A stretch of DNA of 32,000 nt from Candidatus Saccharimonadota bacterium (GTDB lineage: Bacteria > Patescibacteriota > Gracilibacteria > BD1-5 > UBA2023): positions 1,050,001-1,082,000 of the forward strand of contig OY970170.1 of assembly GCA_963706795.1 (NCBI GenBank), given 5' to 3'. The translations under genes and the position numbers were made by a program. How positions within the stretch are numbered: position 1 is the stretch's first letter; the number at the start of each line of letters is the position of its first letter. This document shows positions 1 to 30,429 of the stretch, in pieces. The notes beneath the pieces were generated by a model that saw only the letters and a list, made by a program, of their open reading frames with translations, did no database searches and was not told where the DNA came from.

Positions 1-3000
1 AATGACATCAAGACCGATAAGCGGTTCTCTGACTATGTTCAGGATGTTATTGCCTACCTTCTCTCGTTCTTGGCTCTGGTCTCAGTATGACTCATATTGT
101 GGGCGGGTTTCACGATCCTCACCTCCACCGGTGACGAAGAAAAAGTCAAAAAGGCCAAAAATATCATCGTCTATGCGCTGATCGGTCTTCTGTTGATCTT
201 CCTCGCATTCTCTATTACGAGATTTATCCTCGGAACGGGCAAGGACAAAAAAGAAGGAATCATCAATGCGATCTCTAATGCATTCACTATTGATGGCGCG
301 TATGCGGCAAGTGTCGATGATGGGAAGGGATTTGATTACTATCGCGCTCAGATTGAGGCAACATCTCAGGCTATCGGTCGAGATTATGATGTGGATGGTC
401 GCGTAAAGATTGCTTCACTTCAGGATCTCCAGACTGCAGTAACTAAGAGTATTGATACATTTCCTGATGGAAATCGCGATCTCAATACGGGTCTTGCAAA
501 TAGCGTGCTTACCTCTATTGCGCTTGTTAAGAAATATCCAGATTCTAATCTTTATACAGATCGTCTCGCACAGAGTCTCAAGGATTTCCTTACACGCGTT
601 GCGATTGGTCAGATCACTACTAAGATCACCGCGACTCCCGATCGTGGAAATGCTGCACTCACAGTAACGCTTCGTGCAAATGAAGCACGTGATCCATCAG
701 GCGTGCGCATCCCAGATGCGAACTATATTTGGTGGCTCAAGAATGCTGGTGGTATTCGTCAGGTTATTGGTAAAGGACCAACTATTGGTTACAAATTTAG
801 CGAAGAAGGTGTCTATACGGTCAATCTCCAGATCCTCTCGGCAAGCAAAAATTCAAATGGTCGAACAGACGTGCTTCCTTTTAATGGAACTCAGGAGATC
901 CGCGTAGAGCCAAAGCTCGCAAATATTCTCCTCTTCCTGAATGGGGCAAATGTTTCACAGCTTGATAATTACAAAATTACTCCAGCACAAGGAAGCGCAG
1001 GGGTGATTATTGATGCGACATCTTCGACGGCTGCTCAGGGGGCTTCGATCCTCAGAACAGAGTGGATTTTTGGAAATGGGAATAATTCAGTCTATAACGG
1101 ATCGCCTCGCGTAGAGCGTCAGGTCTTTGCGACGCAGGGGATTTATACTATCCAGCTCAAGGTAGTAACGAACGAAAAGGCTGAAATTATCAAGACAATT
1201 CGTCTCCAGGTTCAGGATCCTATTGCTTCTATTCGTACTGATAAGACAACAGGATTTGCGGGTGATGATTTTAAGTTCCAGGCAACTTCCAATGCTGCGG
1301 GTGTTCTCTTAACATATGACTGGAGTATTCTCGAGTCTGATACAGGAAAGATTCTCTATACAACCAAGGCTTCGTCTATCAACTACAAATTCCCACGAAT
1401 GGGGAACTATGTAGTGAAGCTCAAGACACTCTCATCGAGTGGTCGTGAAGACACAGATAATGTTTCGATCCACATTGATTCGAAGGATCCAATCGTGCAG
1501 TTTGAGGTCAAGGCAGCATCTGCTGAGACTCCAAATATGATCTTGCTCGACGCAACGAAGAGCTACGATCCAGATAGTCTCGATGCTTCAAAACTCACAT
1601 TTAATTGGACGATCGACGGTGAACGCGTAGATCTCGATAATAGCTCACGCAATGGAGCTCTCGGATATTACACTTTTACAACAAAGGGTACACATAACAT
1701 CGTCCTCGATCTTGGTAATCAGCAGGGGAAGGTCACAAATGGTAAGAAGGAATTCAATGTCGAATCTCTTCTCTCGGTTAAGCTTATTGTCACTCCAAAG
1801 ATTTCTCAGCTTGGTGCACCAGTTGCACTCGTAGCCGAATCTAAAGAGGCGACTGTATTCGAATGGGATTACGGAGATGGATCGAGCGAAAACACGAGTG
1901 AAAGCCGTGCATTCCACACCTATAAAAAGGCAGGAACCTACGATGTTCGTCTCACAGTTCGTGGTAATCCAAATGCGGGGAATTCTAATACAATTTCACG
2001 TAAGGTCTATGTTTCAGATGCAGACTCACCATTTGCTTCTATCTCAGTAAAACAAGGACAGGATAGTGTCGAGCCAGTATCTGGTATTTGTTCCGAGGGT
2101 GATGCCTACCTCGTAGATCGTACAAATGCCGTGCGCATCACTGGTGAAGAAAGCGTCAATACTGATGGCACAACGAATGGCCTCACTTATACATGGAAAT
2201 ACGGAGGAAAAACAAGTACTCAGCGTGATTTTTCATATAAATTCGATGAGCTTGGATGTTTCCCAGTCAATCTCACTGTTCGTAGTCAAAAGACTGGCAA
2301 GACACATTCTTCAAGTGTGTATGTCAAAGTTGAAAATGTTCTCCCAACCTTTGCTTCGCTTTCAGTTGTTGCAAACAAAATAGACACTGATCCAGTAGTC
2401 GTTGATGTTGCAGTTAATAATGCGACAGACGCTGATGGTGTAATTGTGTCATATCTCTGGTATTACTACACAGACAGTGATCCTGAACCACAGGATTTCC
2501 GTATTACTCGTACGTCTAAGACTGTTTTTGTTCTTCCACGTATCAATGGTAAATACTATTTTGCTGTAACACTCGAGGACTCAAATGGTGCGAAGGTAAA
2601 TTCGGATGATTCTCGTGAAGAGCGTTATTCACTCACCCTTGCGTCTGACAATATCAATACTCCACTCATCTCACTCAAGTCATCAAAATCAAGTGCGAGT
2701 GTTGGTGAATCCGTATCATTTCAAGCCTCTGTCAAAAATATCCTCCAGCAGGATCTCACAGACAAGGCAGAATACAAATGGGACTACGATGGTGATGGAT
2801 TCTACGAAGAAACCACAACTTCACCGAGCGTAAAACATACCTACGACAAGCCAGGATCATATAACATGAAGGTCAAGGCGACATACAAGGGTATCTCAAA
2901 TACACGCTTTGCGCAGATTACTGTACGTAACGAACTTAAGCCAAATCTTGAGTACTATGCGATCGGCAACAGATATGTATTTATGAATACAACCACTGGT

Positions 3001-5217
3001 CTCTACACGACTGCAAAGTGGACGATTGGAAAATATACCTCTGATAATCGTGATTCGTTCGTAGTCAATCTTGATGACTCAGATGCTGCAGCAGAAGTTA
3101 CACTTAATGTTTCTGATGGCGCTGATACCAAGACCATCACTGTGCCACTTCGCAAGGATGTGCTCAATGCAGCTCGACTCAAGGATTCGACGGATAAGCT
3201 CGTTCTCTTCACATATCCAAAAATCGAAGACGGTGAAATCCATGTTGCTCGTTCGGATGACAAGGTCTTCATCTATCTTGGTGAATCAAAGGGGGATATT
3301 TCAAAATATACGATCGATACTGATACCAAGACTGACAGTGATCTCAATGGAGATGCTGCGGATGACGCTGACAATATCGGAACTGACTCATATGCGAGCG
3401 GTGCACCATATATGATCCGTAATCTCGGCTCAACGAAAGAGCGTCTTATGAAGGTCGCAATCTACGATGCTTCTGGTAAGCAGATTGCATCACGAGAGAT
3501 CAAACTTGTCCTCGATTTCGCTGATGAAAATGCGATCAAGCAAACTCTCGAAGGTTCTGGATCAACCAATACAGCGATCTCTGACGGAGATAAAGCTTCT
3601 CTCGAAAAACTCAAGGATCTCATCCGTACAAAGGCTCCTGAGAGCGAACGTGTAAAGCTCATGCAGAGTCTATCTCAGCTCCAGGATAGCTGGCAGGATA
3701 CAACCGAAAAAACCAAGGCAGTAGTTGCGCTTGAGCGTTCGGTTGCTGATCTCTCGGTGAGTGAAGATATCAAAAATGAATTCCTCACACTGCTTGATGG
3801 ATTCCTTCTCTCTGAGTCTGAAACTAAGGATGAGATGGCACTTGCGACAAGTGTCCTCAAAAAGCTCATTCCAAACTCAAATACTCATTACGAAGAAATT
3901 TTTGGAAAAGACGGTAATGCTGGTCTCGTAGGTGAAATCCTCGGACATCCAACAAATACAGAACTCAACAAAGGAATCGGTGAAAAAATCCTCGGCTATA
4001 TCAAGTCCGATGACAATATTAGCGACGCTGATAAGCTCACTCTCAAAGAGCAGCTCCGTATCGTAATCAATGGTGGTTCTAAAAATCTTCCACCTTCGAC
4101 TGAGCAGACTACTACGACGGATAGCTCAGGAATCATGGTGCTCATCCTTGGTATTATAAAAGCCTTTGGATACATCATTGGATTTGTGGTACTTGGATTC
4201 ATCGGACTCTTTGTATTCTTCCGCGCAACCAATCGTAATGACGCGATGGGATTTCAGGATTTCCTTATCGAAAAAATCTTCCACCGTTCATCGGGAGCAA
4301 CTGGTAATGCTCCACAGACTGTAGTGGCTACGCGAGTGGAGCCTGCTGCACCGGTAACTACTGATCTTCTCGGTAGTATGGATACCAAAGCCCCAGAGAC
4401 TACCGCTCAGACACCACATGTCTTTGATCCACTTCGCCCTGCCGCATCACTCGATGCAGAGAAGATTGCTCCAGTCGAGCCTGCACAGATTCCTGATTGG
4501 CTCAAGGGCACAACCGACCGTCTTGCAGCTGAAAAAATCGAAGAAACTCCTGCTACTTTGGCTCCAGAACCTGAAACTCCAGATATGCCAAGTTGGCTCA
4601 GTCCTACTGCAGAAACCCCTGTCGAAAACCTCGCCCCAGAGCCTGCGGTCATACCAGAGACAATCGCAGAACTTCCTACTGAATTACTCGAAACTCCAGT
4701 AGTTTCAGAGTCGACTCCAAGTGTGGAACCTGCTCCTGCCGAGCTTCCAAGTTGGCTCTCTGGATCGTCAATCGATGCCGAGTCTGCAGAAGTTGCCGCC
4801 TCATCTACTCCGATCGTCACAGAGTACCTTCCAATTGCAGAAGAAACTGTAGAAACTCCAGCTCAGACTGAAGCAGCTCCAGTAGCGGACGATCTCCCTG
4901 ATTGGCTTCGCAATACAAATGTGCCAGTTACCGAAACAGTAACTCCAGTGGTCGAAGAGTCAGTTATACCGCAGGAGTTTCCAATCTCTGAGCCAGCTAT
5001 CACTGAGGCATCACTCGCAGCTCCACAGCCAGCAAGCGATGATCTCCCTGATTGGCTTAAGGATCTTCAGCCTACTACTCCTCAGGCAGAGCCTGCTGTC
5101 GAATCAAAACCAAAGCCAAAGACGTCACCAAAAAAGAAGCCAACGCTTCCGACGACCGAAGCTCCAATCTTGCCTCCATCGACCAATACGGACGATCTCC
5201 CTGATTGGCTTAAATAA
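1..5217 (+). CDS. Giant cell-surface protein, 5'-partial at the window edge: TrbC/VirB2-like (T4SS-pilin-like) N-terminal membrane domain, about 10 PKD/Ig-like repeats, one TM helix, Pro/Glu/Thr-rich C-terminal tail
   Basis: Frame 1 is open from nt 1 if TGA 88-90 is Gly, so the TTG start at 97 in the ORF track is an artefact. The N-terminus reads ...VQDVIAYLLSFLALVSV[G]LILWAGFTILTSTGDEEKVKKAKNIIVYALIGLLLIFLAFSITRFILG, the two-helix pilin-like motif common at CPR protein N-termini. Repeated PKD signatures are present, e.g. WDYGDGSSENTSESRAFHTYKKAGTYDVRLTVRG (about nt 1861-1965), FSEEGVYTVNLQILS and YDKPGSYNMKVKATY. A TM helix GIMVLILGIIKAFGYIIGFVVLGFIGLFVFF lies at about nt 4132-4221. Stop is TAA 5215-5217. 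Confidence 0.8.
4489..5214 (+). repeat. Six in-frame copies of a short motif (IPDWLKG, MPSWLSP, LPSWLSG, DDLPDWLRN, DDLPDWLKD, DDLPDWLK-stop) in the tail of the giant protein
   Basis: Motif codons start at nt 4489, 4582, 4741, 4888, 5038 and 5191. The last four are spaced 147-153 nt apart. The exact 18-mer gatctccctgattggctt occurs at 4891-4908, 5041-5058 and 5194-5211. The final copy is the C-terminus of the protein. Confidence 0.9.
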
Positions 5218-5228
5218 AGATTTCATCT

Positions 5229-7520
5229 ATGAATGCACCTGAGAACAACGAAAATGGACGCCCGAGTTTCTTAGATACTATAATTGCCGAATGAGCCTCT
5301 TCTCCAACAGAGGCTTCTTCGGCATCTAGTGGTTCTACGCCTCCGAAGCCCGCAGGCACTGCGCCAACGCCACCACCACCACCAAAAAAGCGCGAACCAA
5401 TGAAGCCTGCCCAATTTATGAAGATACTTGGGGCACTCTTCTTGGTGTCGCTTATCTTTTTTGGATCGTTCCTGGCCTATATTGTTTTTAATCCAGGGCA
5501 GGCACGATTTTTTATCCGATTTGGTATCAATCCAAGTCAGGTTGCAAGTCTTCTGAGCAATCTCGTCAATGGTATTTTTGGATCGATCACATTTATCCTC
5601 AGTGTGACGTGGGTGATCTTCCTCTTCCGTGCGATCATTACCAAGAAGGAATACAAGCGTAAAAAGACCATCTCGGCGATTATAGCTGCGTTTCTCGGGA
5701 TTTTGCTCTTCTCGCACATTGGTTTTTGGGCTTTTCTCTTTAAAAAAATTGGGGCCTCTGACTTTGTAAATCCAAATGGGGGAGTAGTAGCATACGACAA
5801 TGATCGATATCTCTCAGATAGATTTAAGGATTCGGCAGATATTGTCGATTTTAATAACATGATTGGTCCGATTACGATCCGATATGATCTTGCTTCGGAT
5901 GTAAAATTTGCATCAAAAAATATTGAAATCCAGGACTTTGAAATCGACTTCGATGGCGATGGTCTTCCAGACAAAAAGGGCTCTGATCCATCAGGTGACA
6001 AGAGTCTCATCTATACCTATGATCGTAAATGAAAATTTACACCAAAAGGAGCCTACGCTGGTCTCGACACTGTCACTCGTGAGAAAAAAGTCGTGCCCAT
6101 TGTTTTTGATCCTGTAAATATCGTCGGAATCGTCGATATTAAAGAAGCAGACAAAAACATCGTCTATGATGCTACCGATCTCAAAACATTTGGTAATCTT
6201 GCATGGTACACGAGCGACAATCTTGATGTTCCCGCTTCGCGTGAGCTCAAATTTACGACCAAGATCGATAAAGCCGACAAATTTGTCTGCCTCGCGATCA
6301 GTAACGACCCCAAGCAAAAAGACACTTGTGACCGCATATTTTTCGTAAAATCCAAGTCAGATTCTCCGATTAGTGCGACGATTAAATATGTAGTGGATCC
6401 TACCGATCCTCGCAAATACAGCTTTTCGCTCGCGGACAAAAAATCTAAGAGTGGAGGTGAAATCGAGTCTGTTAAATGGATCCTCGATGATACGAGCACT
6501 CTCTCAAATGACGAGAGTTTTGATACGAGCTTCTCGACGTATTGAGATTTTAAAATGAGTGCCAAGCTCACAGATACTGCAGGCAATAGCGTCACAATCT
6601 CTGAGAAAATAAGTGTGAAGGCTCCGCTCGCGCTCATTAAAGATTCGAATTCTGACTCTTCGATCAAGGTAACTGATGAGGCAGGGAATTCAATGCTTAA
6701 AGGCACGTATAATAGCGATCTGCGAGCATATAAGATCGAGTCTATGACGATCCCATCAAAGCTCACGTTTGATGCATCCGATGTCCGCGTCAAAAATGCT
6801 GGCTTTGAGCTCAAAAATGTCAAATGGGATATTGACGGCAGCGAAAAACAAGGCCTCGTAGTCACCCATGAATTTGTCACTGAGAAGCGCTATGAGATCA
6901 ATATTAAGTACCTCTTCGCGAAAACTGGCAGTGATGAAGAATTCAGCGCTGACGAAAAAATCATCATCGAAGGGAAAAAACAAGAAATCGCACCAAGCTT
7001 CAAGATGATTTTCCCAGATGGACAGTCTGATGTTGATAGTCTCTACGCACCTACCAAGATTACATTTGATGGCTCAGCCTCGAGTGTTCGTTCAGGCAAG
7101 ATTTCCAAATTTATCTATGACTTCGGCGAAGGTAAAGAACCAAGCGAAGGTGATGCTGTAAAAACCTACGAGTATGACATTCCAGGCGAATACACCATCA
7201 CACTCACTATTGTCAAAGATGATGGCTCTCGTGAGTCTGCCAAACGCAAAATTATTATCAAAGAAGTTCCTAAAAATCTCACGATTCACTCAAGTGTATC
7301 GTCTGGTAAAGTAGGACTTGGAGTCGACTTTGATAGCTTTGGCAGCGTCGGGCAGATCGAAAAATACGAATGGAATTTTGGAGACGGATCAACCACCGCT
7401 TCCGAGCCAAATCCAACTCATGTCTTCACAACTGCTGGCACATACACGGTCAAACTCTCCGTGACCTATATCGACGGTACAGTCCGCACCGCTGATATGG
7501 ATATGAAGGTGGCAGAATAG
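5229..7520 (+). CDS. Multi-pass membrane-anchored PKD-domain surface protein (about 763 aa)
   Basis: ORF fragments 5400-6032, 6093-6545 and 6555-7520 share one frame and are joined by TGA=Gly at 6030 and 6543. The frame stays open upstream to ATG 5229 through TGA 5292. The N-terminus is MNAPENNENGRPSF...TPPKPAGTAPTPPPPPKKREP, followed by three hydrophobic helices. C-terminal PKD signatures include YDFGEGKEPSEGDAVKTYEYDIPGEYTITLTIVKDDG and WNFGDGSTTASEPNPTHVFTTAGTYTVKLSVTY. ATG 5400 is an alternative start. Confidence 0.8.
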
Positions 7521-7521
7521 C

Positions 7522-7551
7522 AAAAAATCTCCGCATGCGGAGATTTTTTTT
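7522..7551 (+). terminator. Rho-independent terminator (A-tract, perfect palindrome, T-tract)
   Basis: aaaaaatctccgca|tgcggagatttttttt lies directly after stop 7518-7520. The stem is perfectly self-complementary and centred at 7535/7536. Confidence 0.8.
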
Positions 7552-7570
7552 GTACCTTTCGCAAAGTACA

Positions 7571-7579
7571 TGATATAAT
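7571..7579 (+). promoter_or_regulatory. Candidate extended -10 promoter element (TGaTATAAT) for the pilin gene
   Basis: tgatataat at 7571-7579 lies 35 nt upstream of ATG 7614 and just after the upstream terminator. The -35 is poor (tgtacc, 7551-7556). Confidence 0.35.
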
Positions 7580-7613
7580 TCTGGCGTCTTCTCCTCCATA
7601 GCTCCTCCTTTTT

Positions 7614-9482
7614 ATGTATTATTTAAGCTCTCGTGCGACCTCGGTCCGTGCGAATGCCTTCACCCTCATCGAAATCATTGTCGTAGTCTCCATCATCGCT
7701 GTGCTCTCAACGATTGGGTTTCTTGCGTATTCGGGTTCGGTGACAGATGCTCGCGATACTACGCGTAAAGCAGATATGGCAGAACTCAAGGTACGTCTGC
7801 GAGCTACCAAACAAAAGACAGGAGCTTATCCACTTCCTACAAGCTATTTCTCTCTCACTAATAGCTGAGTACTTGCTGCATACCAAGGAACCTCAGATGC
7901 GATCACTATGGAGAACGGAAGTGCTTTTAGATCTGATCCACGTACTCTTAAGCCCTATGTGTATTCGAGTATGAAGAATCGACAGGGATACCAGATCGGC
8001 ATGACCTTCGAATGAAACAATACTCTCAAGACCTACATAGACGGAGATTACATGGTGCTCACTCCCACGACCTTCCCAAGTCTTCTCCTCTCAGGAGGAA
8101 GTAGTGGAAGTACGATAGAAGTAAATCCCACTATTGGAGCCTGAGCTACAAACAGACTCAAATTCGCAGTCAACAACGGGAGCTACAATATTCCCTATGA
8201 CATGAATGGCTCACCCGTAGCCAGTGCGAGTAGCTTTGCAGGGATTACTACAGAGTGAGGAGTGAGTCTCCCAATGCTCAGTACCTATCCTACATGTCAG
8301 GCGATCTACGAAGCCTGAAAGGGTATGGGACCAGGAATGTATCTCATTCTTGAAGCATCTGGTACAGTGACGAGTACAGGCTGTACTATGACTGAGACTC
8401 TAATCGCAGCTCTTCCTTCTGGATGTAATGCTACGACCTACTCAGGATATGCTGTACCGGTTATGGTGAGTGGTACAAATACCATCCTTACCAAGACAGG
8501 ATCTATCTCGAATGGAGTTCTGGGCTATACCCTCCCTGCATCGTGTTCGAATACGCTGATGTCGTATGGGGTGGAAGCAAGTTCTCCAACTTGTAATACA
8601 GGATATACCTGGAATGGAAGCGCTTGTACCGATGCTATTCCACCAACGATTGCGAGTGTAACAAGCGCTTCACCAAGCTGTAATACCATCCGTATGACCG
8701 TCAATGGTGCCACGGATACAGGAGGACTCAATGCTACACCGTACTCATTTGACGGAGGTTCGACTTGGCAGGCTGCAAATTACAAGGATTATTCTAATAC
8801 GAGCTATACAGTACCTGCAAACCAGATCAAGGTCCGTGACCTCTCGGGTAATGCCTATACCTACGCAAGTGCTGCCAGTGGTACCGCCTCAAGCTGTATC
8901 GTTATGGTCGATGTTTCAGGGAATGGTAACATCATTATTCCAGCTGGCTCAACGACCATGTCGCTCTATGGTAATGGATGATCAGGTACCGTCAGCACCT
9001 ACAATCCTGGACAAGCATACCAAGCACCATTCAAAGAAGGGGATCTTGTAAGCGCGAATGACACATTTGGAAACAATAATTATACTACATGGGTAACTCG
9101 CCCCTGTAATACACATATACAAGAACCGTTTAGTGGCATCGAATGTATTGGATTTGGATCATGACCATATCAGTATTCCAGTGAAGATGCGACCTATATG
9201 TATTTTACGAATACAGCAAATCCAGCTCTTATTAATACCTATACCCTTAGTATTAACCCATGACATCCATATGTCGCTCCATCTTGAGCCATGGCGACAG
9301 CAGGACAGGATACCACAGTCATGGTTGATGGAAATACCTATACATTTAGCGGATCACCGAGTGGCGTGACCACCGTTCCAGCACCAACTACGCAGTATCC
9401 AACTCTTCCAGCAGGATCAACGACACTCTCATACAGTGTAGCGGCAGGACAGACACTCAGGATTACATATACCACGAACTAA
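7614..9482 (+). CDS. Oversized type IV pilin-like protein (about 622 aa) with a prepilin N-terminal methylation-type signal
   Basis: The N-terminus MYYLSSRATSVRANA/FTLIEIIVVVSIIAVLSTIGFLAYSG is a class III signal with an FTLIE hydrophobic helix. Fragments 7614-7868, 8325-8981 and 9291-9482 are in one frame. I translated every intervening codon and found nine in-frame TGA (7866, 8013, 8142, 8256, 8316, 8979, 9162, 9261, 9285) and no TAA/TAG. The globular part is Cys-rich, with an Asp-box-like SFDGGSTW at 8745-8768. Confidence 0.8.
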
Positions 9483-9487
9483 AAAAT

Positions 9488-9515
9488 AAATCCCTCTGAG
9501 AGGGATTTATTTTTG
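9488..9515. terminator. Bidirectional rho-independent terminator shared by convergent pilin genes
   Basis: aaatccctc-tga-gagggattt is a 9-bp perfect stem flanked by an A-run on the left and atttttgg on the right. The minus-strand gene's stop codon (9507-9509) lies inside the right arm/T-tract. Confidence 0.8.
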
Positions 9516-10154
9516 GTAATACTGGTATTTCCAATTGGTGAGTGAGTGTTTGAGACTGATGGTGTATGGTTCAGCACGAGTATTATCTCACCATGTGACA
9601 ACGGATTCTACCTCGATTGTGCTTCGATCTGCAGGTCGAGTGATGCGGATTTCTCTCGAGAAAATAGATCTGCAATTACGAGAGATACTTCCTGCACAAG
9701 GTATAGATGGGGGAGTACCTGTTTGAGTTATGAGTCCGTTAATATCAAAGTACACTGGGAAGCTTGTGAGATATGTAGCTCGAGAGCTTCCTGTTGCGAT
9801 GGCAGTAGTCGTAACTCAGCTGAGTGTCCAAGCGCCTCAGGGAAGTCATGCTACTATATATGAGCCAGAAGTTATGCCGCCGGATCCTGTTCCAATACAG
9901 AGTGCGTTATAGTTTGCTGTGTCGTAGCATCCGTTGTAATCACTCGAAAATTTAATCCAGTTAGTATTGCGGATATTCTCAACTGCTTCGATTCATTCGC
10001 GGGCGATATTGACGGCTTTGATTCGATTTTCAGTTGTGGTTGCAAGTGATCTACCACTCGTGAGGATTTTGTATGCTCCAACTATGCCGGTCGTTAAGAC
10101 GAGCATCACTATCATGACTTCTATGATCGAATTTCCTCGAACGTTTCGTTGCAT
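9507..10154 (-). CDS. Minor pilin / pseudopilin-like protein (215 aa) with a prepilin-type N-terminus
   Basis: This gene is absent from the standard-code track because five in-frame TGA cut it into pieces under 60 aa. Hand translation from ATG 10154 gives MQRNVRG/NSIIEVMIVMLVLTTGIVGAYKILTSGRSLATTTENRIKAVNIAREGIEAVENIRNTNW...TNWKYQYYQK, ending at TAA (9509-9507). The start lies 3 nt after the stop of the upstream gene. Confidence 0.7.
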
Positions 10155-10157
10155 GTC

Positions 10158-11624
10158 TTAGAGTGAAGGCTTGGCGCTACCAGTACCAGTAGCAGGCGGA
10201 GTGGTTGTTGTAGGAGCAGGAGTGATGACAGGAGTCGAAGATTCCTTTACGACATAGACCTTGGTAGTTGCGAGTACTTCGTCGCTTGGTCCGTAGTAGG
10301 TGATGAGATACTCATTAACCCCTTCTTCCATATTCCCGTTATCAATGCTGGCATTGTAGCTCCAAGAAGTTCCAAACGCCTTAAACTGCTGAAGCTGATA
10401 ATTATTGACCTTGATGAATTTTACGATATTTGGTGCGAATGATCCCTTAAGCTTTACAGAAGTTTCTGTAGTCTTGTATGGATTGTCGAGAGGGCTCGTG
10501 ATCTTAAAGTCTTTATTTGAAACTGGATAGTTTACGACATCTGGTTTTTTAATGGGTGTAGCCTTTTTGCCAGACACATTGACAGTAATGATTCCCTGAT
10601 CAATCTTAACACCTGAGTCATCAAAGACCTTGTATGAAATATCATTTGAAGCATCTGGAAGCGCGTAATCTTTGAGTCGGAATGACTTGTCTTCTTTGAG
10701 GATCTGAGCTTCTTTTTTGCCGATGACGATCTTAGCAACGCTTGGATTATTGATCTTCCCTTCGATATTTACTGTCTGTGTATCAACACTCATTTCGTCT
10801 TCTGGATATGTAAAGGTGATAGCCTTCTTTGAGTTTGTAGTACTTGAGCTTGTTGAACCAGATGCTGAGGTAACACTGCCACCTACTGATCCTGAGCTGC
10901 TCATTTCGCCTGCGCTTCCACCTACACTCGTGAGAACTGAGGCCCCATCTTTTTTAATGAAGATGCTCGATTGTTTAATGAAGTCATCAATCACTGCAAC
11001 CTGATCGGTGATATTTGTGTTCTTTGCTTCTGAGAGAAGAAGTGAGAGCATTTGATTACTTCCTACACTTGCAGTTGCCGCGTCTGTTGAGGCTGTTGTG
11101 CTTCCTTTGAGGATGTAGGCGTTACTTGAGCGAGTATTTTGGTACGCAATAAACACGGTCCCCTTATCTGGCGTCACTGTAAAGAGCTTGAGTTTGATAA
11201 CTACGTCACCATTCGGGCTATCTACCCAAACATAGCCATTACCCACGGTGAAGGTGTGCTTGCCATTAATGAGGCCATCGTAGTGCAACTCAGAGAGACT
11301 CTCGATCGCGATCTTCGAAGTCGATCCCTCGATTTCGATATCTGCATCACCAGAGTCTACTTTGACCATCTTGTCATTTGGATAGAGTTTCGATGGACCT
11401 TTGAGCTCAGTTTGAGCGTCAGAAGACATATAGATGCTGACTTTTGCATCCTTTTTTGGTATCACCTGTACCGTAGGTGTCCCTGGAGTTTCGCTTCCAT
11501 TGGTTTTGCTCGATGATGAGCTTCCCATGATGGCCTTAACGATGATTACGAGGATAATGATCGCAATACATACTGGAAGTACGAGAGTCATCGCATTCGT
11601 GCGATTATTTCCGCCTCGTCGCAT
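10158..11624 (-). CDS. Membrane-anchored extracytoplasmic protein (488 aa), possibly FecR-like plus Ig-like beta domains, with Ser/Thr-rich linkers
   Basis: The ORF is uninterrupted. The likely start is MRRGGNNRTNAMTLVLPVCIAIIILVIIV at 11624, because the ORF-track start at 11678 lies inside the upstream terminator. There is one N-terminal TM helix, S/T-rich linkers and a C-terminal TPVITPAPTTTTPPATGTGS. The FecR-like call is a weak motif impression only. Confidence 0.6.
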   Translation of the reverse strand: MRRGGNNRTNAMTLVLPVCIAIIILVIIVKAIMGSSSSSKTNGSETPGTPTVQVIPKKDAKVSIYMSSDAQTELKGPSKLYPNDKMVKVDSGDADIEIEGSTSKIAIESLSELHYDGLINGKHTFTVGNGYVWVDSPNGDVVIKLKLFTVTPDKGTVFIAYQNTRSSNAYILKGSTTASTDAATASVGSNQMLSLLLSEAKNTNITDQVAVIDDFIKQSSIFIKKDGASVLTSVGGSAGEMSSSGSVGGSVTSASGSTSSSTTNSKKAITFTYPEDEMSVDTQTVNIEGKINNPSVAKIVIGKKEAQILKEDKSFRLKDYALPDASNDISYKVFDDSGVKIDQGIITVNVSGKKATPIKKPDVVNYPVSNKDFKITSPLDNPYKTTETSVKLKGSFAPNIVKFIKVNNYQLQQFKAFGTSWSYNASIDNGNMEEGVNEYLITYYGPSDEVLATTKVYVVKESSTPVITPAPTTTTPPATGTGSAKPSL

Positions 11625-11658
11625 AGTTGAATAGAAAAAGATATGGGTGAAATATATC

Positions 11659-11692
11659 AAAAAACTCCCCGAGGGCAAGCGGAGAGTTTTTT
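11659..11692 (-). terminator. Rho-independent terminator for the upstream minus-strand gene
   Basis: The minus strand reads AAAAAACTCTCCG-cttgccct-CGGGGAGTTTTTT, a stem with one G-U pair followed by a T-run. It lies 17 nt downstream of stop 11709-11711. Confidence 0.7.
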
Positions 11693-11708
11693 GTTTTTAT
11701 TTATTGGC

Positions 11709-12248
11709 TTATAGGTCCTTTGGAATAATAGCGTCAACTGCAGCATAGGTTGCATCCTTTCACATTGGGATACGCACTGAGACAGTATCTCCGATCTCTG
11801 CCTTGAGGAATGTTACACTCGCCATGAGGACATTGTAGGTCTTGTTTTCTGAGACTACCTGATATTTATCACGGTTCATAGTCAGAAGCCCGATAACAGT
11901 ATCATAAGGAATTTCCTCAATGATCTTGTAGGTAATCTTACCGTCAGATCCGATGATTGCCTTGAGCTTGCTTCCTTGCACGAGGTGCGATTTGGAAGCG
12001 TAATTCTGTGGCACCGGATAGATGGCTCCATCAGAACCAAGCATGGATTCTCCTGTGAATACTCACTCAACAATCTTGTCCGAACCACTTTTGTAGTTCG
12101 TAAGGCCGCTGGCGTTGATGTATTCTAATGCTTCTGTTTCTCCGTCTTCTCAGGCAAGAGTCGCGAGGATCTTTCTTGCTGCTGAGACTGATTTGCCTGC
12201 ACTCTCCAACAAGTCGCGAATAGCCGCAAGCTTTTTTTGGTCGGTCAT
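11709..12248 (-). CDS. Conserved hypothetical protein (179 aa)
   Basis: Hand translation from ATG 12248 gives MTDQKKLAAIRDLLESAGKSVSAARKILATLA[G]EDGETEALEYINASGLTNYKSGSDKIVE[G]VFTGESMLGSDGAIYPVPQNYASKSHLV...VRIPM[G]KDATYAAVDAIIPKDL, ending at TAA. It has three in-frame TGA, and track fragment 11760-12044 is its core. A TATAAT hexamer (plus coordinates 12274-12279) lies 26 nt upstream. Confidence 0.7.
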
Positions 12249-12335
12249 GATATTTGTATGAATGAACCTTCTTATTATAGCGATAACCGCTACACAGCAA
12301 TGAAAGCTGAATTGACAAAATCTCTTTTAAACGCC

Positions 12336-13172
12336 TAATAATCAAAAGTACCAACGAAGAATCTCCGTATGAAAAAAGAGTGCGAGATAGAGTCCCACTG
12401 CCAAATACGGACCGAAAGGAACTTCGATATTGCGTCGACGCTTAATCGCAATAATTCCGACACCCACTACGCTTCCCACTATATAGGCAAGGAAGAGTCC
12501 AAGAATGGCGATTTTTGCGCCTGCCACGAGTCCCATAAATATCGCGATTCGTAGATCGCCTCCGCCCATCCAGACTCCGTTAGAGACCAAAATCTGGAAA
12601 TAAAAAAATCCAAAAATAATTACCGCACCAAGTAACGCATTTGTCAGTGGCGATGTCAGCCACGGTGTTACAAATGGCAAATAGTGACTCATAATATTTG
12701 CCTGCGAAAAATGATCTACCGAGATCACCACGAATAATATGGCAAGGAAGGGGAGAATCACTCTATCAGGGATCTCCATATACAGCAGATCGTACACACT
12801 AAATGTTACTGCCACGAATCCTGCACTGAGGAGTATTGCGAGTCGGATTGTTTCAAGTCCACTTCAGGCAACTATTGCTGGCATATCTATGAGATACATT
12901 CCCGTGAGCACAAAGACGACGGTCATCAGACATTCGAGCAAAAAGTGGTATGCTGGAATTTTTGCTCCGCAATATCGGCATTTCGCGCGCAGTCCGAGAT
13001 AGGACACAATTGGCATGAGATCGAGCACGCCGAGTGTGTGATTGCATTTTGGGCAGGCACTTCGCTCATGTGACATATTGCGTCCTTCTCTCAGGCGTGG
13101 AATGAGCGCAGACGCGAAGCTTCCAAATATTGCTCCAAAGATTGCGAGTGCGAAATAGGCGAGATTTACCAT
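12336..13172 (-). CDS. pilD: Prepilin peptidase / N-methyltransferase (A24 family)
   Basis: Fragments 12864-13172 and 12342-12815 are in frame and joined by TGA 12864-12866. The N-terminus has a Cys pair motif (CPKCNH...CRYCGAKI). Conserved Asp motifs MEIPD and MGGGDLRIAIFMG are present. TGA 12342-12344 is read through to TAG 12336-12338 (...RWYF[G]L). Confidence 0.9.
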
Positions 13173-13747
13173 GATGATCGAGATTGGAATATGCGGAGGT
13201 TATGTTCGTGGATGAGCTCAATATGTTTTTCGTTTATTCAGCGTATATTCATGAGCTGTTTGAGCGAATTTGAATGCGCGAGATGGACGAGTTTTTCGAG
13301 TGTAGGATCGGATTTTCAAGGATCTTGTATTCCAAAAAAGTGACCAATGCGCAAGCAGAAGAGACTCGCGAGTTGCAAAAATGGAATATCCGGATTTTCT
13401 GCTGCTTCTAAAAAATAGAGCGTCTCAGCAAAGAGTTCACTCTCTTCGAGTCATTCTGGTAGAGACTCAGCCAGAATTTTGATCACAAAAAGAAATCGGA
13501 TCATTTCGTCATAATTGCGTCATTCTTTATGGAATGCTCGCTTGCTGCGCACACTTCGGAGTCGATTGATTGTTCATTTGCGATCAATGGTGCACTCGAC
13601 AAAGGTACCAAGGTCAATATATCCCGCCGATGGAACCTCCTTACGAAAGGCGGTGATCTTGCCAAATTGCTTTGTAAAGAGCGTATAAATACGCTCTTTA
13701 TCTTTGACCTCGCTCCATTTGAGTAATACCGCGTCGGTGACGTACAT
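13166..13747 (-). CDS. recO: RecO-like recombination mediator (193 aa, short form)
   Basis: This gene is absent from the standard-code track because it has five in-frame TGA. Hand translation gives MYVTDAVLLKWSEVKDKERIYTLFTKQFGKITAFRKEVPSAGYIDLGTFVECTIDRK[G]TINRLRSV...LASLFCLRIGHFFGIQDP..., which resembles the RecO N-terminal OB-fold pattern. The start is 2 nt after the upstream stop. The stop overlaps the pilD start (ATGGTAA, 7-nt overlap). Confidence 0.55.
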
Positions 13748-13749
13748 GA

Positions 13750-15684
13750 CTAGTGAATATTGATCTTGCCGTCTGAGATTTCAAATTTAATCGAAGAGAC
13801 TCCTGTGTCTGTGAGTGCGAGGATTTCTCCATCCTTTGGTATAACCACAGAGTAGACTTTTCGCTCAGAAATCTCGATCTGTCCTACATACTTAAGACCA
13901 CGAACGTCCTTAATATTTTTTGAATCCGGCTCAAATATCCAGATCTTATTTGCGAGGATGAGATAGAGGTAATTTGCGCTTGAGCTCGTAGTAATTTTTG
14001 GCGCTATTACCCCATCGCTTGCGCTGTAATTATCAGGAAGCTTATTGAGTACGAGCCCCTTGCGTGAGAAGGCTGGAGTTGTAAAAATCTTCTCAAAACT
14101 GAGATCATTCTTGATGATATAAAATCCACCATCGAGCGCGAAATCGAGCATGGTATTGCCCTTCATCCCTCATTCGATCATGCCGGATTTGCCAGTAAAG
14201 CCGTTTACACTTGGACGATGCTTGTAAACCTGGGTTCCATCTGCTGAGAGGAGATAGATATTGCCGATGAAGGTTCTGATCTTGGAGCTTGGCTCCCACG
14301 TACTCTGTCCTTCGACATTTACGTATGAGAAGGTACCCTTATTATATTTAATAACGCGATTGGTCTTTGTGAGGATATAGATCACGCCTTCTTGACTGAT
14401 ATCCGCACTGATCGCTTCTTCGCCGTCAGGGAATGATTCTTTTTTTGGATTTGAACCCTGTACATATGGACCGTAGAGTCCATTTTTACCTACAAAATAG
14501 AGCTTTTTTGAGTTTTCGAAGAGTTCGATTGGCTCAAAATCTCAGGCTCCAAAATTATAGAGTTCAGGATGGCTTGTGAGTGTATAGGTCTCGATTCCAT
14601 TCAGCTGTTTCTTGAGGATAGAGATCTGTGAGAGGAGCTCTTTAACATCATTTGCGAAGAGCTTTTGATCACGTACTTCAAATATGAGATCCTCCGCTTT
14701 TTTGATATTTTGCTTGAATGCTTCTTTGTTTGCAAGATCACGAGAAGAGCGATTGAGGATCTGGCCAGCTTCTACGAGCTTATTTTTGTATTCCTCAGGT
14801 ACAATTCATCCCATGCCAGAGTGAAATACTGAGCTCGTAATGAGATAGAGTAATCCAATCGCTACAACAATACCTGTGGCAAAAATACCAGTGCGGATTT
14901 TTTTGTTCGCAAGGGCTTTTTGTACGGATTCGTGGGCGAGGATTTTTCTGACGCGTCATTCGATATTGAGATCGAGGACAAATTTCTTGGTCCAGGCGTA
15001 TGCCTTTTCGCTACTCTCGAGTACAGTTGATACAAAACTCTCTGGACGGACAAAACGCGAAGACCGAGCATCAGAGTAGTCGCGCTCAAGCGAGTTCTGA
15101 AAAACGAGACACTCGATCGAATCACCTGCGGCTTCTCGTGATAAGAGATCTTCTACAATTGCAGAATCATTCGTGCGAGCAAATTCTGCGAGATCCTCTT
15201 TTGTGAGGAAGCTGAGGAGGTCTTTGTTGGCAATATAGAGTGCATCTCCGAGGCCAACTGTTCCACTCGAGACATATGAGAATTCTCGATTATTTGATCC
15301 CATCCCGTCTGAGATATTGGTGATGCGCTCTCCTTGCTGGAGATATGCTTGGTATTCACCACAAACCGAAAATGACAGGAGATCATTGCGGAGGATCGAC
15401 AAAAATACCTTGAGCTTGGATTTTGCAATGAGCGATTCTTTCATTAAAAGGAATCGATTGAGTGCCTCAAGTACTCGTGAAAAAAACACTTCGTCGGATT
15501 CGGTGGCAGATTTGCCATTACCGCAAAGGTCTACGAGTGCGCTTTCGAGAAGCGAAACAACGGACGAGCTTTCAGAGCTGACCTGAAAATAGATCTCTGC
15601 GCTCGCATCAATACGAATTTTTTTCGTAGAAACGGAGTTAGCGAGATGTGTTCCGCTGTGGCGATAAATGTGAGAAACAATCAT
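13750..15684 (-). CDS. Single-pass membrane protein (644 aa): cytoplasmic N-terminal domain (possibly a degenerate PP2C/SpoIIE-like fold), TM helix, extracytoplasmic beta-rich (propeller-like) domain
   Basis: Fragments 14956-15684, 14170-14385 and 13750-14166 share one frame. I translated 14386-14955 codon by codon and found TGA at 14956, 14806, 14542 and 14170 and no TAA/TAG. The TM helix is IFATGIVVAIGLLYLITSSVF. The C-terminal half has repeated hydrophobic beta-strand motifs (VIYILTKTNRVIKY, NIYLLSADGTQVYKH, NYLYLILANKIWIFEP). The functional label is tentative. Confidence 0.65.
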
Positions 15685-19258: not shown

Positions 19259-20797
19259 ATGGACCAGTCTCTTTCCCCACTCTCGCTCACACGGCTTTGG
19301 CTCTTCAACTTGGCCCTTCTTGTTATATATGTAACTGGAATTGTTGGTTTACCCTTCTTGAAGTCATCAGTACTCGAGTATCAGAACGTAAAATCTGATC
19401 CTTTCGACGGTACTATTTATCCTCTCAAGTTCGTTCCGAATTGGCTGGATTCTAAATATTCCGACAAATCGATTCGTTTTGAGAATATTCCAGTTGCTGA
19501 TTTTATTGAGCTTCCGTATTACGATCCTGAGATTTTTGAGGATGAGACTGCAAAAGGCAAGATCGCACTTCTCCAGCGAATGACCTACATCACGCCATAC
19601 ATGGGGAGTTATCGCATGAATTTTAAAGAATATGATGGATCACATCTTGGTGTCGATATCCGTGCTCCTCTCGGAACTCCAGTACTCGCGATCGCAAATG
19701 GTGTTGTGACTAAAGTAAATCTCAGCAATGGCGGTGATGGAATCTACGTAACGATCCGTCATGATGGCGTGAGCTTCAATGGTCAGCCAAAGCAGTCATA
19801 CTATTCAAGCTATCTCCACCTCGAGTCTGCATCAGTTACTGAGGGTACAAAAATATCTAAGTGACAAGTACTTGGTAAGGTTGGAATGTCGGGCGTAACT
19901 ACTACACCACATCTTCATTTTCAGATTGATAAGGCAGATGCCCCGTTCCATGCGTATTGGCCGTATACCTTTAGGGATGCACAAGATCTCGGACTCGATT
20001 TCTTTGATGCGGTTAACGTAGGGCTTGGTAAAGAAAACGCTATTAAATATACCGTTCATCCACTCGATTTTGTCCAAGATCTCTCAGATGGTCAGGGACA
20101 AGAAGCACCTATCGTGCCAGATGTGAAGGTCGCAGCTGGAGGCTCAAATGGTGCGCCCCAGACTATTGTGACAGGTGTTGTTGTCACTCCAAAACCTACC
20201 ACGCCTACCGTCGTAGTTCCACCACTCAATGCTGCGCCAGATCTCGACAGTAAGCCACCGGTGAGTCCTATTGTTGCAGTCAAGCCAACCGTTCCGGATG
20301 GCCAGGCATTTAGAGATATTGGACGTAATTCAGTCTATTTTACAGCTACAAAATATCTCAAAGACAGTGGAGTTTCACAAGGATATGATGATGCGACCTT
20401 CCGTCCTGATACTCGAATGACTCGCCGTGATGCAGTCATTCTCCTCGCACGTACATTTGGTATTGAGGCACAGGCGGGCGCAGAGAGCACATTTCCTGAT
20501 GTTCCAAAGACTGATTCTGCAAATGGGTATATTGCCGCACTTAAAGCGAAGGGCGTTATCCAAGGATCATTTGTTTTCCGTCCAGATGACATCATCACAA
20601 AGACAGAATTCGCAAATCTCGTAGTTCGACTTTCGGGCGATCAGGTCTCAACAACAACACGTATTCCTCAGGATGTTGCGACACTGAGTTATTTCTCAAG
20701 CAAGAGCGGATATCGAGTAACAAGATTTCAATCAAATATTGCTGTAACTCGTGGTGAAGGAGCTCGAATGCTCTATATGTGGAAAAATCAGAGCTAA
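19259..20797 (+). CDS. M23-family metallopeptidase with N-terminal membrane anchor, Pro/Thr linker and C-terminal SLH (S-layer homology) repeats
   Basis: Fragments 19259-19864 and 19886-20797 are in frame. TGA 19862 is the Gly of TKISK[G]QVLGKVG. M23 metal motifs are GSHLGVDIRAP and TTTPHLHFQI. SLH-like repeats from about nt 20309 are FRDIGRNSVYFTATKYLKDSGVSQGYDDATFRPDTRMTRRDAVILLARTFG and FPDVPKTDSANGYIAALKAKGVIQGSFVFRPDDIITKTEFANLVVRL. Confidence 0.9.
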
Positions 20798-30428: not shown

Positions 30429-30429
30429 C

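Follow-up and report, generated by a model that had tools for sequence, protein, structure and literature searches.

The first 5,217 nt of the stretch of DNA analyzed here (the window, 32,000 nt in all) carry a forward-strand gene that joins a VirB2/TrbC-like pilin to a giant PKD-bearing membrane protein in one reading frame (1–5217). Its 5′ end is cut by the window edge, leaving 1,738 aa up to a TAA at 5215–5217. The gene is real, previously undescribed, and found across Gracilibacteria; our search of the literature found no published description of a pilin–PKD fusion architecture. We favor, at a probability of roughly 0.55, the reading that it encodes the precursor of a surface complex confined to Gracilibacteria, a translational fusion of pilin and giant that would be cut at the junction into a free pilin and an adhesin with a single anchor. 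The four parts that a preliminary description had named (pilin module, PKD array, second membrane anchor, and Pro-rich tail) all occur together in the ORF.

Reading Frame and Genetic Code

Under translation table 11, frame 1 is open from 97 to 5217 only, because of a TGA at nt 88–90. Reading TGA as sense raises the ORF content of the window from ~8.6k to 23.6k aa and opens frame 1 from its first nucleotide to the terminal TAA, with a single in-frame TGA at codon 30. Code 25 is used across the whole window, and codon 30 (88–90, forward strand) is read as Gly. When orthologues are translated with code 4, W appears at columns where the family conserves G (YAWF vs. YAGF; WDG vs. GDG), which supports the assignment. 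All family members use in-frame TGA, up to 89 times per orthologous gene, and their stop codon is always TAA or TAG. Public data hold an identical protein, P0001, of 1,706 aa, which was called from a TTG at nt 97; full-length orthologues span 1,750–1,870 aa.

The break in the table 11 ORF and the late start of the public call are what one would expect if the gene were chimeric through misassembly, or a run-on ORF that arises from treating TGA as sense. We consider such an artefact extremely improbable and reject it for practical purposes: the same architecture occurs in 54 independent MAG assemblies from many studies, TGA codes for an amino acid across both window and family, and codon 30 falls within pilin helix 1, a helix that no orthologue interrupts.

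The Pilin Module

The pilin hairpin (52–234, forward strand) was delimited by a PF18895 match, hydropathy, and the AlphaFold model of an orthologue. PF18895 (T4SS_pilin) matches aa 24–76 with 30.3 bits in a search of the whole protein and 38.7 bits when the module is searched alone, both above Pfam's own gathering cut-off of 26.6 bits, so the earlier pilin call holds. Hydropathy divides the module into helix 1 (aa 18–41), a cytoplasmic loop STGDEEKVKKAKN (aa 42–54), and helix 2 (aa 55–78), and orthologue P0002 (79% identical) is modeled as a helical hairpin in this region. Stand-alone Gracilibacteria pilins of ~143 aa share ~50–57% identity with the fused module. Comparison with orthologues places the true N-terminus, ~90–105 residues comprising the expected signal peptide and a Cys-rich head, upstream of the window edge. 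The generalization that modules of the pilin type are normally small subunits meets numerous exceptions; ~85 of the 150 best representative hits carry 2–13 tandem hairpins per chain.

The genuine pilin-family match and the close stand-alone paralogues would suit an adhesin borne on a pilus, in which the hairpin is extracted into a VirB2-type filament and the protein serves, by analogy with type IV minor pilins, as an initiating or minor pilin holding the PKD array on the pilus or at its base. VirB2-like pilin arrays are reported to be essential for a cultivated member of Patescibacteria, and the phylum has so far yielded no T4SS adhesin (PMC12102498), which also fits. We nevertheless think this arrangement unlikely, as the protein, unless cut, would stay in the cell's own membrane, held there by its C-terminal TM helix and the tail behind it. 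Type IV secretion genes (VirB4, VirB6, VirD4) were sought in the window and none was found, and the closest stand-alone pilin examined adjoins type IV pilus genes, not virB4. In Gracilibacteria, moreover, VirB6 is not detectable and T4SS genes are dispersed (PMC12102498).

Ectodomain, Membrane Anchor, and Tail

All features that follow lie on the forward strand. The predicted ectodomain begins with a four-helix bundle (331–615; aa ~111–205; AlphaFold pLDDT 85–91), whose Foldseek matches are all generic helical bundles (E ≥ 0.019). The bundle is followed by eight PKD-like Ig domains in tandem (646–2976; aa 216–992). Pfam PKD and PKD_4 profiles match the whole protein at E ~1e-39; taken singly, all eight units match PKD-type profiles, four of them above the gathering cut-off. 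Two further Ig-like beta-sandwich domains (2947–3513; aa ~983–1171; pLDDT ~80–93) are seen in the AlphaFold model only, with no match in a Pfam search, and resemble tandem Ig proteins in Foldseek (Fc receptors, titin, SiiE, Hoc; E ~1e-5). The second of these contains an invariant acidic loop, DSDLNGDAADDADN (3334–3375), whose D/N columns do not vary and whose sequence looks like a calcium-binding loop. A membrane-proximal, all-helical stalk (3583–4068; aa ~1195–1356; 8–9 helices in the AlphaFold model, pLDDT ~83–89) is conserved in sequence across the family. The preliminary description was therefore right about a tandem PKD/Ig array but overextended it to about 1,250 aa, as the PKD and Ig-like domains end near aa 1171 and are flanked by the helical bundle and the stalk.

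The second membrane anchor is present as a TM helix at aa 1377–1407 (4129–4221; hydropathy and AlphaFold), which is followed by RATNRND. The KVKKAK of the hairpin loop and the RATNR after this helix fit the positive-inside rule and hence the predicted topology, which puts the PKD array outside the cell. On the cytoplasmic side, alignment and AlphaFold identify a conserved juxtamembrane helix, GFQDFLIEKIF (4249–4281). Beyond it, composition indicates a disordered, acidic tail rich in Pro, Ala, Thr, and Glu (4282–5214; 16% Pro, net charge −36); the Pro-rich tail described earlier is thus there, at 311 aa after the short helix instead of roughly 330. We found no DNA tandem repeats in the tail region.

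Along the tail, an undescribed motif with the consensus [ILM]P[DS]WL[KRS] recurs six times, ~50 aa apart: IPDWLK (4489–4506), MPSWLS (4585–4602), LPSWLS (4744–4761), LPDWLR (4894–4911), LPDWLK (5044–5061), and a final LPDWLK (5197–5214) that forms the C-terminus of the protein. Every complete orthologue tail contains 2–8 copies, one of them C-terminal in most orthologues, and the rest of the tail is unalignable.

In the form D-[LI]-P-D-W-L-K, and in its location at the very C-terminus behind a disordered linker, this motif is similar to the FtsZ tail. Taken as a lead only, this likeness suggests an envelope or cell-cycle scaffold, such as a spacer or ruler in the wall or S-layer, or a cell–cell junction, linked through its tail motifs to division proteins of the FtsA or SepF type. 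The genomic setting is compatible with such a role, in that the near-universal gene keeps synteny with MurF, an M23 peptidase that carries SLH domains, and further envelope genes. The same motif, however, occurs in unrelated bacterial proteins, including a soluble TPR protein of a high-GC bacterium, and is thus not division-specific. Neither FtsZ nor FtsA was found in the fetched loci, and we give the scaffold a low probability.

Fused, Split, and Pilin-Less Forms

Relatives are encoded in at least 117 GTDB species genomes. The 80 that we fetched all come from Gracilibacteria, Peribacteria, or unclassified Patescibacteria MAGs, with no Absconditabacteria-labelled orthologue among the fetched loci. 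The pilin is fused to the giant in 54 loci, encoded by a separate upstream gene in 7, and absent from 11. In the split loci (L025, L041, L042, L043, L056, L071, and L074), genuine stop codons follow the pilin and the giant has its own signal peptide; the pilin-less giants form an 11-member clade with a plain signal peptide. Both kinds follow the plain order of signal peptide, ectodomain, TM helix, and tail. Split forms are nested within fused clades, and splitting arose at least twice.

Between hairpin and ectodomain lies a linker (235–306) that is disordered in the AlphaFold model of the orthologue (pLDDT <50) and, apart from its junction motif, variable in the orthologue alignment. It ends in A-Y-A (aa 100–102, nt 298–306), a putative internal signal-peptidase I site. 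The pattern [AVSTGLIC]-x-A is present here in 54/54 fused orthologues and at the signal-peptide cleavage position of 7/7 split forms (e.g. VSA↓AYTESD vs. TYA↓AYNESD, fused and split forms compared at the cleavage site). It precedes the helical domain by 5–10 residues, and Pro often occupies −5 or −6. As chance alone is expected to place the pattern somewhere in a 22-residue window in about half of random sequences, it is meaningful only because of its fixed position and its agreement with the split forms.

The preliminary description saw a protein anchored at both ends. Hairpin and TM helix are indeed both present, and the question is whether the double anchor is permanent. If the hairpin stayed uncut, it would serve only as signal-anchor and second membrane foot, and an ectodomain of ~1,300 aa would loop or arch between it and the TM helix. 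Several observations are in line with this arrangement. Fusion is the majority state; A-x-A lies 12–45 residues past helix 2 with no adjoining hydrophobic core, an atypical placement for signal peptidase I; and the conserved Ala could be just the residue with which the conserved YTESD..TF segment opens. Modules are also often kept covalently linked in the multi-hairpin proteins, many of which have no obvious A-x-A between hairpins, so that uncut hairpins are clearly tolerated. Set against these points, the split and pilin-less forms work without a covalent link, splitting happened repeatedly and independently, and A-x-A survived in all fused forms, whose former signal peptide has otherwise decayed. 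We therefore hold the permanent double anchor to be doubtful, if still a serious contender. The processed precursor is at least as likely, given the split and absent pilins, the repeated splitting, and an A-x-A kept within a disordered linker. Since this motif persists in every fused form at the very point of cleavage in the split forms, the mature giant is probably an ordinary single-anchor membrane adhesin, with the pilin released from the same precursor.

A Proposed Surface Complex

A co-oriented gene starts 11 nt downstream of the giant (5229–7520, forward strand) and encodes a 763-aa protein with a Pro-rich cytoplasmic N-tail, three TM helices, and a beta-rich ectodomain with terminal PKD domains. 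The N-tail carries a conserved motif, S-[LFM]-L-x-x-I-[IL]. Homologues of this partner occur in 57 loci and, in the 45 listed, lie 0–130 nt downstream on the same strand. The gene at 7614–9482 in the window is of the type IV pilus minor-pilin kind with a large C-terminal domain.

In the processed-precursor reading, the fusion would combine two units, which some relatives encode as separate neighboring genes. The first would be a complete VirB2/TrbC-type pilin, with signal peptide, Cys-rich head, and two-helix hairpin. The second, ~1,630 aa, has the predicted layout of a single-pass (type I) adhesin, with the bundle, ten Ig-like domains that include the eight PKD units, stalk, TM helix, and tail. 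Pilin helix 2 would replace the signal sequence of the second unit and thread the ectodomain out of the cell, and signal peptidase I would most likely cut at A-x-A, so that each translation would yield one free pilin and one single-anchor giant. The giant may then sit on the membrane with the putatively co-transcribed partner and project through the wall, while the six evenly spaced tail motifs could dock a putative cytoplasmic partner. Its domain types suggest a contact or adhesion structure facing host or neighboring cells.

Comparison with Known Systems

The hairpin resembles the VirB2-like pilins of Patescibacteria (PF18895; PMC12102498) in its above-threshold profile match; orthologues also share with them a signal peptide and a charged G-D-E-E-K-V-K-K-A-K loop. 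Those pilins are small (~100–150 aa) and often form tandem gene arrays near virB4; here ~1,650 more residues follow the hairpin in the same ORF, including a third TM helix, in a window where no T4SS gene was detected.

Vampirococcus lugosii, a code-25 CPR predator, encodes very large proteins, anchored in the membrane and equipped with PKD and further interaction domains, which are assumed to mediate host-cell recognition and attachment (PMC8080830). That report gives domain types only and describes no pilin fusion, conserved partner gene, junction site, or tail motif (PMC8080830). The present giant is likewise very large, membrane-anchored, and PKD-bearing, and the host-contact role proposed in the preliminary description is drawn from its domain types and from what is assumed of such CPR surface proteins. 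The fused gene is a good candidate for the means by which these tiny symbionts make contact with other cells.

Among type IV pilus minor pilins, those that bear a large C-terminal domain, such as the CofB/TcpB type, share a pilin-type N-terminal membrane segment and a large extracellular domain. They belong to an unrelated pilin class (N-methyl, single helix), however, and have neither a TM helix at the C-terminus nor a cytoplasmic tail. In layout, the giant is also like the single-pass receptors for adhesion that carry docking motifs in the cytoplasm (Mycoplasma P1-type adhesins, eukaryotic cadherins, and integrins): an Ig-like array precedes a single TM helix, and the Pro-rich tail is disordered and contains short candidate docking motifs. 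There is no sequence relationship. The conserved C-terminal peptide of FtsZ, D-I-P-x-F-L-[RK], has the same succession of acidic residue, I/L, P, x, aromatic, L, and K/R, and it too closes a disordered linker at the C-terminus or close to it; the giant's motif differs in having Trp for Phe/Tyr, repeating up to 8 times, and sitting on a membrane protein.

P-type pilin precursors provide a parallel for processing. The propilins RP4 TrbC and Ti-plasmid VirB2 are made as longer precursors whose termini are trimmed by signal-peptidase-type enzymes, the C-terminus of TrbC by host and signal-peptidase-like (TraF) proteases. The giant likewise contains a hairpin made within a longer precursor, here with a predicted cleavage. 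The known C-terminal extensions of the propilins run from a few to ~30 residues and are discarded, whereas here the "extension" would be a giant functional protein.

Recoding and extent of the giant ORF

With TGA read as a sense codon, the giant pilin-PKD ORF at nt 1-5217 (+) runs in frame 1 without a stop from nt 1 to the TAA at 5215-5217, giving 1738 aa (numbered here from nt 1); codon 30 is its only in-frame TGA. With the standard bacterial code, this frame opens only at nt 97, behind the TGA at 88-90, and the identical public record of the protein (P0001) is a table-11 call starting with TTG at this same nt 97. Treating TGA as sense increased the ORF content of the window (ORFs ≥150 aa) about threefold, from ~8.6k to 23.6k aa. 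The genes of orthologous giants have as many as 89 in-frame TGAs and stop without exception at TAA or TAG, and their deposited code-4 translations show W at conserved G positions (YAWF for YAGF, WDG for GDG); together, these results show that TGA encodes glycine. A programmed stop separating the pilin from the rest of the giant was ruled out, as the window TGA lies inside helix 1 and TGA is sense across the family. We conclude that the ORF is genuine and that the window edge truncates it.

Table-11 gene calls split or truncate this family in public databases, leaving N-terminally shortened giants and pilin-only fragments of 148-154 aa. Two records of that length, P0026 and P0029, were considered as pilin paralogues and rejected, since both look like giants cut short by table 11 at an in-frame TGA.

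An exact search with nt 1-60 of the window found no match in genome and metagenome contig collections. Because the upstream sequence was not recovered, the missing N-terminus was reconstructed from orthologues. Full-length examples (P0008, P0002, and the protein of locus L005) begin with a signal peptide ending in A-x-A, followed by a head of ~40 residues with four Cys and then the hairpin; by this comparison, the window protein is probably short of ~90-105 N-terminal residues.

The pilin module and its relatives

The preliminary description had recognized a pilin-like segment at the N-terminus, and this recognition was borne out by a match to PF18895 (T4SS_pilin, VirB2/TrbC superfamily) at aa 24-76, which scored 30.3 bits in the whole protein and 38.7 bits for the module alone against a curated cut-off of 26.6. 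The module has two hydrophobic helices (aa 18-41 and 55-78) joined by a short, positively charged loop, STGDEEKVKKAKN, and was predicted as a helical hairpin in an orthologue model. PF04956 (TrbC) reached only 17 bits on the window module, under its cut-off, and is on record for the stand-alone paralogues. A typical pilin is a small stand-alone subunit of ~100-150 aa and the present ORF has at least 1738 aa; the module would become such a subunit only after the putative cleavage at A-Y-A discussed below. No VirB4 or other T4SS machinery linked to the giant was present among the window's other genes, and comparing the module profile with PDB sequences revealed no relationship to the pilins of solved T4SS pili, spurious GPCR helices (E ≥ 0.013) being the sole matches.

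Stand-alone Gracilibacteria pilins of ~143 aa have a layout like that of the fused module and are ~50-57% identical to it. One of them, P0036, belongs to a cluster at 10001-13499 of locus L081, in which its gene immediately precedes those for two small single-TM proteins, T2SSF (PilC), and an N-methyl pilin, so that its neighbors are type IV pilus genes and not virB4. The two single-TM proteins look PilN/PilO-like by eye only. In the window itself, the gene at 7614-9482 (+), with 9 in-frame TGAs, encodes a type IV pilin-like protein of 622 aa whose N-terminus bears a methylation motif and whose large C-terminal domain contains Cys; in other genomes, it shows no synteny with the giant.

When all 1.84 billion representatives were scanned with the pilin module, 21,203 matched at E ≤ 0.001. 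Of the top 150, about 85 contained 2-13 hairpins in one polypeptide (e.g. 8 hairpins in a chain of 820 aa, or 13 in one of 1775 aa), a proportion that is not a frequency, as this ranking is biased to multi-copy proteins. Examples of these poly-pilins, with 2-13 tandem PF18895-like hairpins and no names in their source databases, are P0052, P0053, P0123, P0194, and P0067. There was no obvious A-x-A between poly-pilin modules. P0123 ends in a Cys-containing, Ser/Gly-rich segment outside the hairpins. Covalent linkage of this hairpin is thus common. The premise that the module normally forms a small subunit has many exceptions, and the idea that it is always small and free is weakened by this linkage.

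Domain anatomy and topology

Beyond the hairpin, the protein consists of a linker ending in A-Y-A (aa 79-102; disordered in AlphaFold and delimited by the family junction comparison), a predicted four-helix bundle (aa ~111-205), eight PKD-like units (aa 216-992), two predicted Ig-like domains (aa ~983-1171), a modeled helical stalk (aa ~1195-1356), and a transmembrane helix (aa 1377-1407) supported by hydropathy and the AlphaFold model. A juxtamembrane helix, GFQDFLIEKIF (aa 1417-1427), is conserved and modeled as such, and is followed by a disordered tail of 311 aa (aa 1428-1738) with 16% Pro and a net charge of -36.

The N-terminal model was built on P0002, an orthologue 79% identical to the window protein, together with 12 family sequences. 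It predicts a signal-peptide helix, a low-confidence Cys-rich head, the hairpin (pLDDT ~75), the disordered linker (pLDDT <50), the four-helix bundle with confidence (85-91), and the first PKD domain. The C-terminal model, covering window aa 960-1440 (pLDDT 77), predicts two Ig-like sandwiches, the second with an invariant acidic loop, DSDLNGDAADDADN, then a stalk of 8-9 helices, a short disordered stretch, the TM helix, and the juxtamembrane helix. Fold searches with the N-terminal model gave no match under E = 0.019, the four-helix bundle being generic, and those with the C-terminal ectodomain found just generic tandem Ig proteins and nothing informative for the stalk.

Searching the whole giant against Pfam located the PKD array in six stretches (PKD_4, E = 2e-39; PKD, E = 3e-38). 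Each of the eight successive segments that make up aa 216-992 matches PKD-type profiles, and four pass the threshold by themselves. The fourth unit, 1525-1803 (+), has polycystin-1 REJ instead of PKD as its best profile (E = 1.2e-5, 24.5 bits, cut-off 25), which probably reflects merely the PKD-like part of REJ. An array of about 1250 aa of tandem PKD/Ig-like domains had been described; the array is there, but its actual size is ~955 aa of Ig-like domains, flanked by two helical domains.

The array sits between the exporting helix and the TM helix, in the extracytoplasmic region. After cleavage of the signal peptide, the hairpin loop (KVKKAK) would be cytoplasmic and the hairpin C-terminus outside, which would place the giant ectodomain outside the cell. 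The last TM helix is followed by RATNR, placing the tail in the cytoplasm. Split and pilin-less relatives have the same topology with no assumption about the hairpin, and they agree with the earlier proposal that the PKD array lies outside the cell.

Fused, split, and absent pilins

Relatives of the giant fall into three arrangements. Pilin and giant form one ORF at 54 loci. At seven split loci, the pilin gene has real stops and is followed immediately by a giant gene with its own signal peptide. In the remaining 11 loci, all from one clade, the giant has a plain signal peptide and there is no pilin inside 10 kb. In a distance tree of the ectodomains, the six-member split group and a lone split locus, L025, fall in different fused clades; therefore, the link has been broken at least two times without gene loss.

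To compare the junctions, we aligned every sequence anchored on the HMM of the four-helix domain. All 54 fused forms have [AVSTGLIC]-x-A 5-10 residues ahead of this domain, frequently with Pro at -5 or -6, and in this alignment the site coincides with the signal-peptide site in 7/7 split forms. Examples are NVSA|AYTESD (split), KTYA|AYNESD (fused), and GAYA|ASVDDGK (the window, fused). The linker is otherwise variable in length and sequence, with 12-45 polar residues modeled as disordered.

We read the junction as what is left of a signal peptide, the core of which would have decayed once the genes were fused while its cleavage site was retained; such retention argues that the site is still in use. 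Against cleavage, the hydrophobic core expected of a processed precursor immediately upstream of A-x-A is not present in the linker, the site is distant from the preceding helix, and the Ala is possibly part of the domain's own conserved N-terminal segment. Weighing these sequence features, we would put cleavage at the fused junction at an even chance, perhaps slightly better. A double anchor had been proposed for this protein; both membrane segments do lie in one ORF, but their joint presence is probably a property of the precursor only, not a permanent state.

The giant is best seen as a pilin gene fused to the neighboring gene of a giant single-pass PKD adhesin, accompanied by a membrane partner. 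From this architecture, we infer a role in contact or adhesion, with docking via the tail. The family is undescribed, and a search of the literature on Gracilibacteria surface proteins found no description of it.

Distribution, partner, and neighborhood

Scanning one genome per species, we found relatives of the giant in at least 117 genomes. Human oral GN02 and two complete chromosomes are among the 80 that were fetched, all of them Gracilibacteria, Peribacteria, or unclassified Patescibacteria MAGs. The gene directly downstream, at 5229-7520 (+), starts 11 nt past the giant's stop and encodes the partner, whose 763 aa comprise an N-tail rich in Pro, three TM helices, and an ectodomain of the beta/PKD type. 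Partner homologues occur in 57 loci, and in the 45 listed they lie 0-130 nt downstream of the giant on the same strand. Giant and partner are a conserved two-gene unit, and the survey of other genomes that had been proposed earlier showed that the architecture recurs, with its 54 fused loci and its partner.

The partner's N-tail (5229-5410) has a conserved S-[LFM]-L-[DSG]-[DEQ]-I-[IL] near its start, here RPSFLDTII. This motif is somewhat like the giant's GFQDFLIE, and the cytoplasmic parts of the two proteins might interact.

A looser conserved neighborhood comprises genes for an anchored beta-rich protein of 488 aa, a 179-aa protein, the prepilin peptidase PilD, RecO, a 644-aa membrane protein, and an M23+SLH protein. 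The 488-aa (10158-11624, -) and 644-aa (13750-15684, -) proteins are conserved and membrane-anchored and accompany the giant's neighborhood, their genes being sometimes downstream and on the opposite strand, sometimes upstream and on the same one. The 179-aa protein (11709-12248, -) has no Pfam match, is 53-93% identical across the class, far above the conservation of its neighbors, and is always encoded beside the 488-aa protein, PilD, and RecO. At 19259-20797 (+) lies an M23 peptidase with two SLH domains and VPNWL behind its N-terminal TM segment; in ~24 other genomes, the gene for its homologue immediately precedes the giant. Elsewhere in the window, the gene at 28092-29339 (+) has 7 in-frame TGAs, and its 415-aa product is without a Pfam match. 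A single ORF at 30340-32000 (+), continuing past the window end, encodes a GalE-like, NAD-dependent sugar epimerase domain fused to a glycosyltransferase domain of family 4.

A recurrent motif in the cytoplasmic tail

The window tail carries six [ILM]P[DS]WL[KRS] motifs, at aa 1497, 1529, 1582, 1632, 1682, and 1733, the last five spaced 50-53 residues apart and the final copy forming the C-terminus. Every complete orthologue tail has 2-8 copies, in surroundings that cannot be aligned, and there is no DNA tandem repeat in the tail region. Retention under these circumstances shows that the motif itself is under selection. Used alone as a homology query, the tail returned one match, a 283-aa protein from a contig as long as that of the orthologue P0002, and literature searches for a PDWLK-type motif found nothing relevant.

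A metagenome scan with the pattern [DE]-x-P-D-W-L-K-stop returned further family members and two unrelated carriers. The first, at 7220-10954 (+) of locus L149 on a 61%-GC contig of a soil bacterium, is a 1244-aa protein with TPR repeats followed by ~1000 aa of acidic disorder, more than 30 PDW[LMF]/DWL motifs, and the C-terminus ...DLPDWLKGATDAPDSQQNDLPDWLK (DLPDWLK). The second, an ORF ending at 2576 of locus L082, has 796 aa with a signal peptide, PKD, a TM segment, and a tail with the C-terminus DDDDIPDWLK. The remaining single-copy matches may be chance. The pattern resembles the FtsZ C-terminal peptide, a likeness we take as a lead only; no FtsZ was found in the fetched loci for a comparison of C-termini.

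A more ambitious proposal is that the fused gene encodes a true polyprotein, yielding pilin and adhesin 1:1 through signal peptidase, and that [LIV]PDWLK is a new, widespread bacterial C-terminal docking signal. We consider it unlikely that both hold. If the motif did act in this way, it would tie adhesins that span the envelope to a conserved receptor in the cytoplasm, with a binder of FtsZ-tail-like peptides (FtsA, SepF) or a TPR-type reader of C-terminal peptides as candidates. Were polyprotein and docking both true, the result would be an integrin-like link from outside to inside in ultra-small symbionts.

Significance and comparison with known systems

Gracilibacteria are uncultivated, recoded, and host-dependent. 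The giant and its partner are conserved across the class and are among the largest Gracilibacteria surface proteins. The giant physically unites VirB2-like pilins and giant adhesin-like proteins, hitherto separate topics in these organisms. VirB2-like pilins were reported to be essential in a cultivated relative (PMC12102498). The fused, split, and absent arrangements form a natural experiment on whether pilin and giant must stay linked, and the junction site offers a concrete test case for signal-peptidase processing within a bacterial precursor. The occurrence of the tail motif in unrelated bacteria may indicate an unrecognized cytoplasmic docking system.

Among known giant adhesins, we compared the protein with the RTX/T1SS class (SiiE and LapA type). 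No T1SS genes are present in the window, and the likeness to SiiE is limited to the generic Ig fold. Whereas RTX/T1SS adhesins have a C-terminal T1SS signal and no TM anchor, the giant ends in a TM helix and a cytoplasmic tail.
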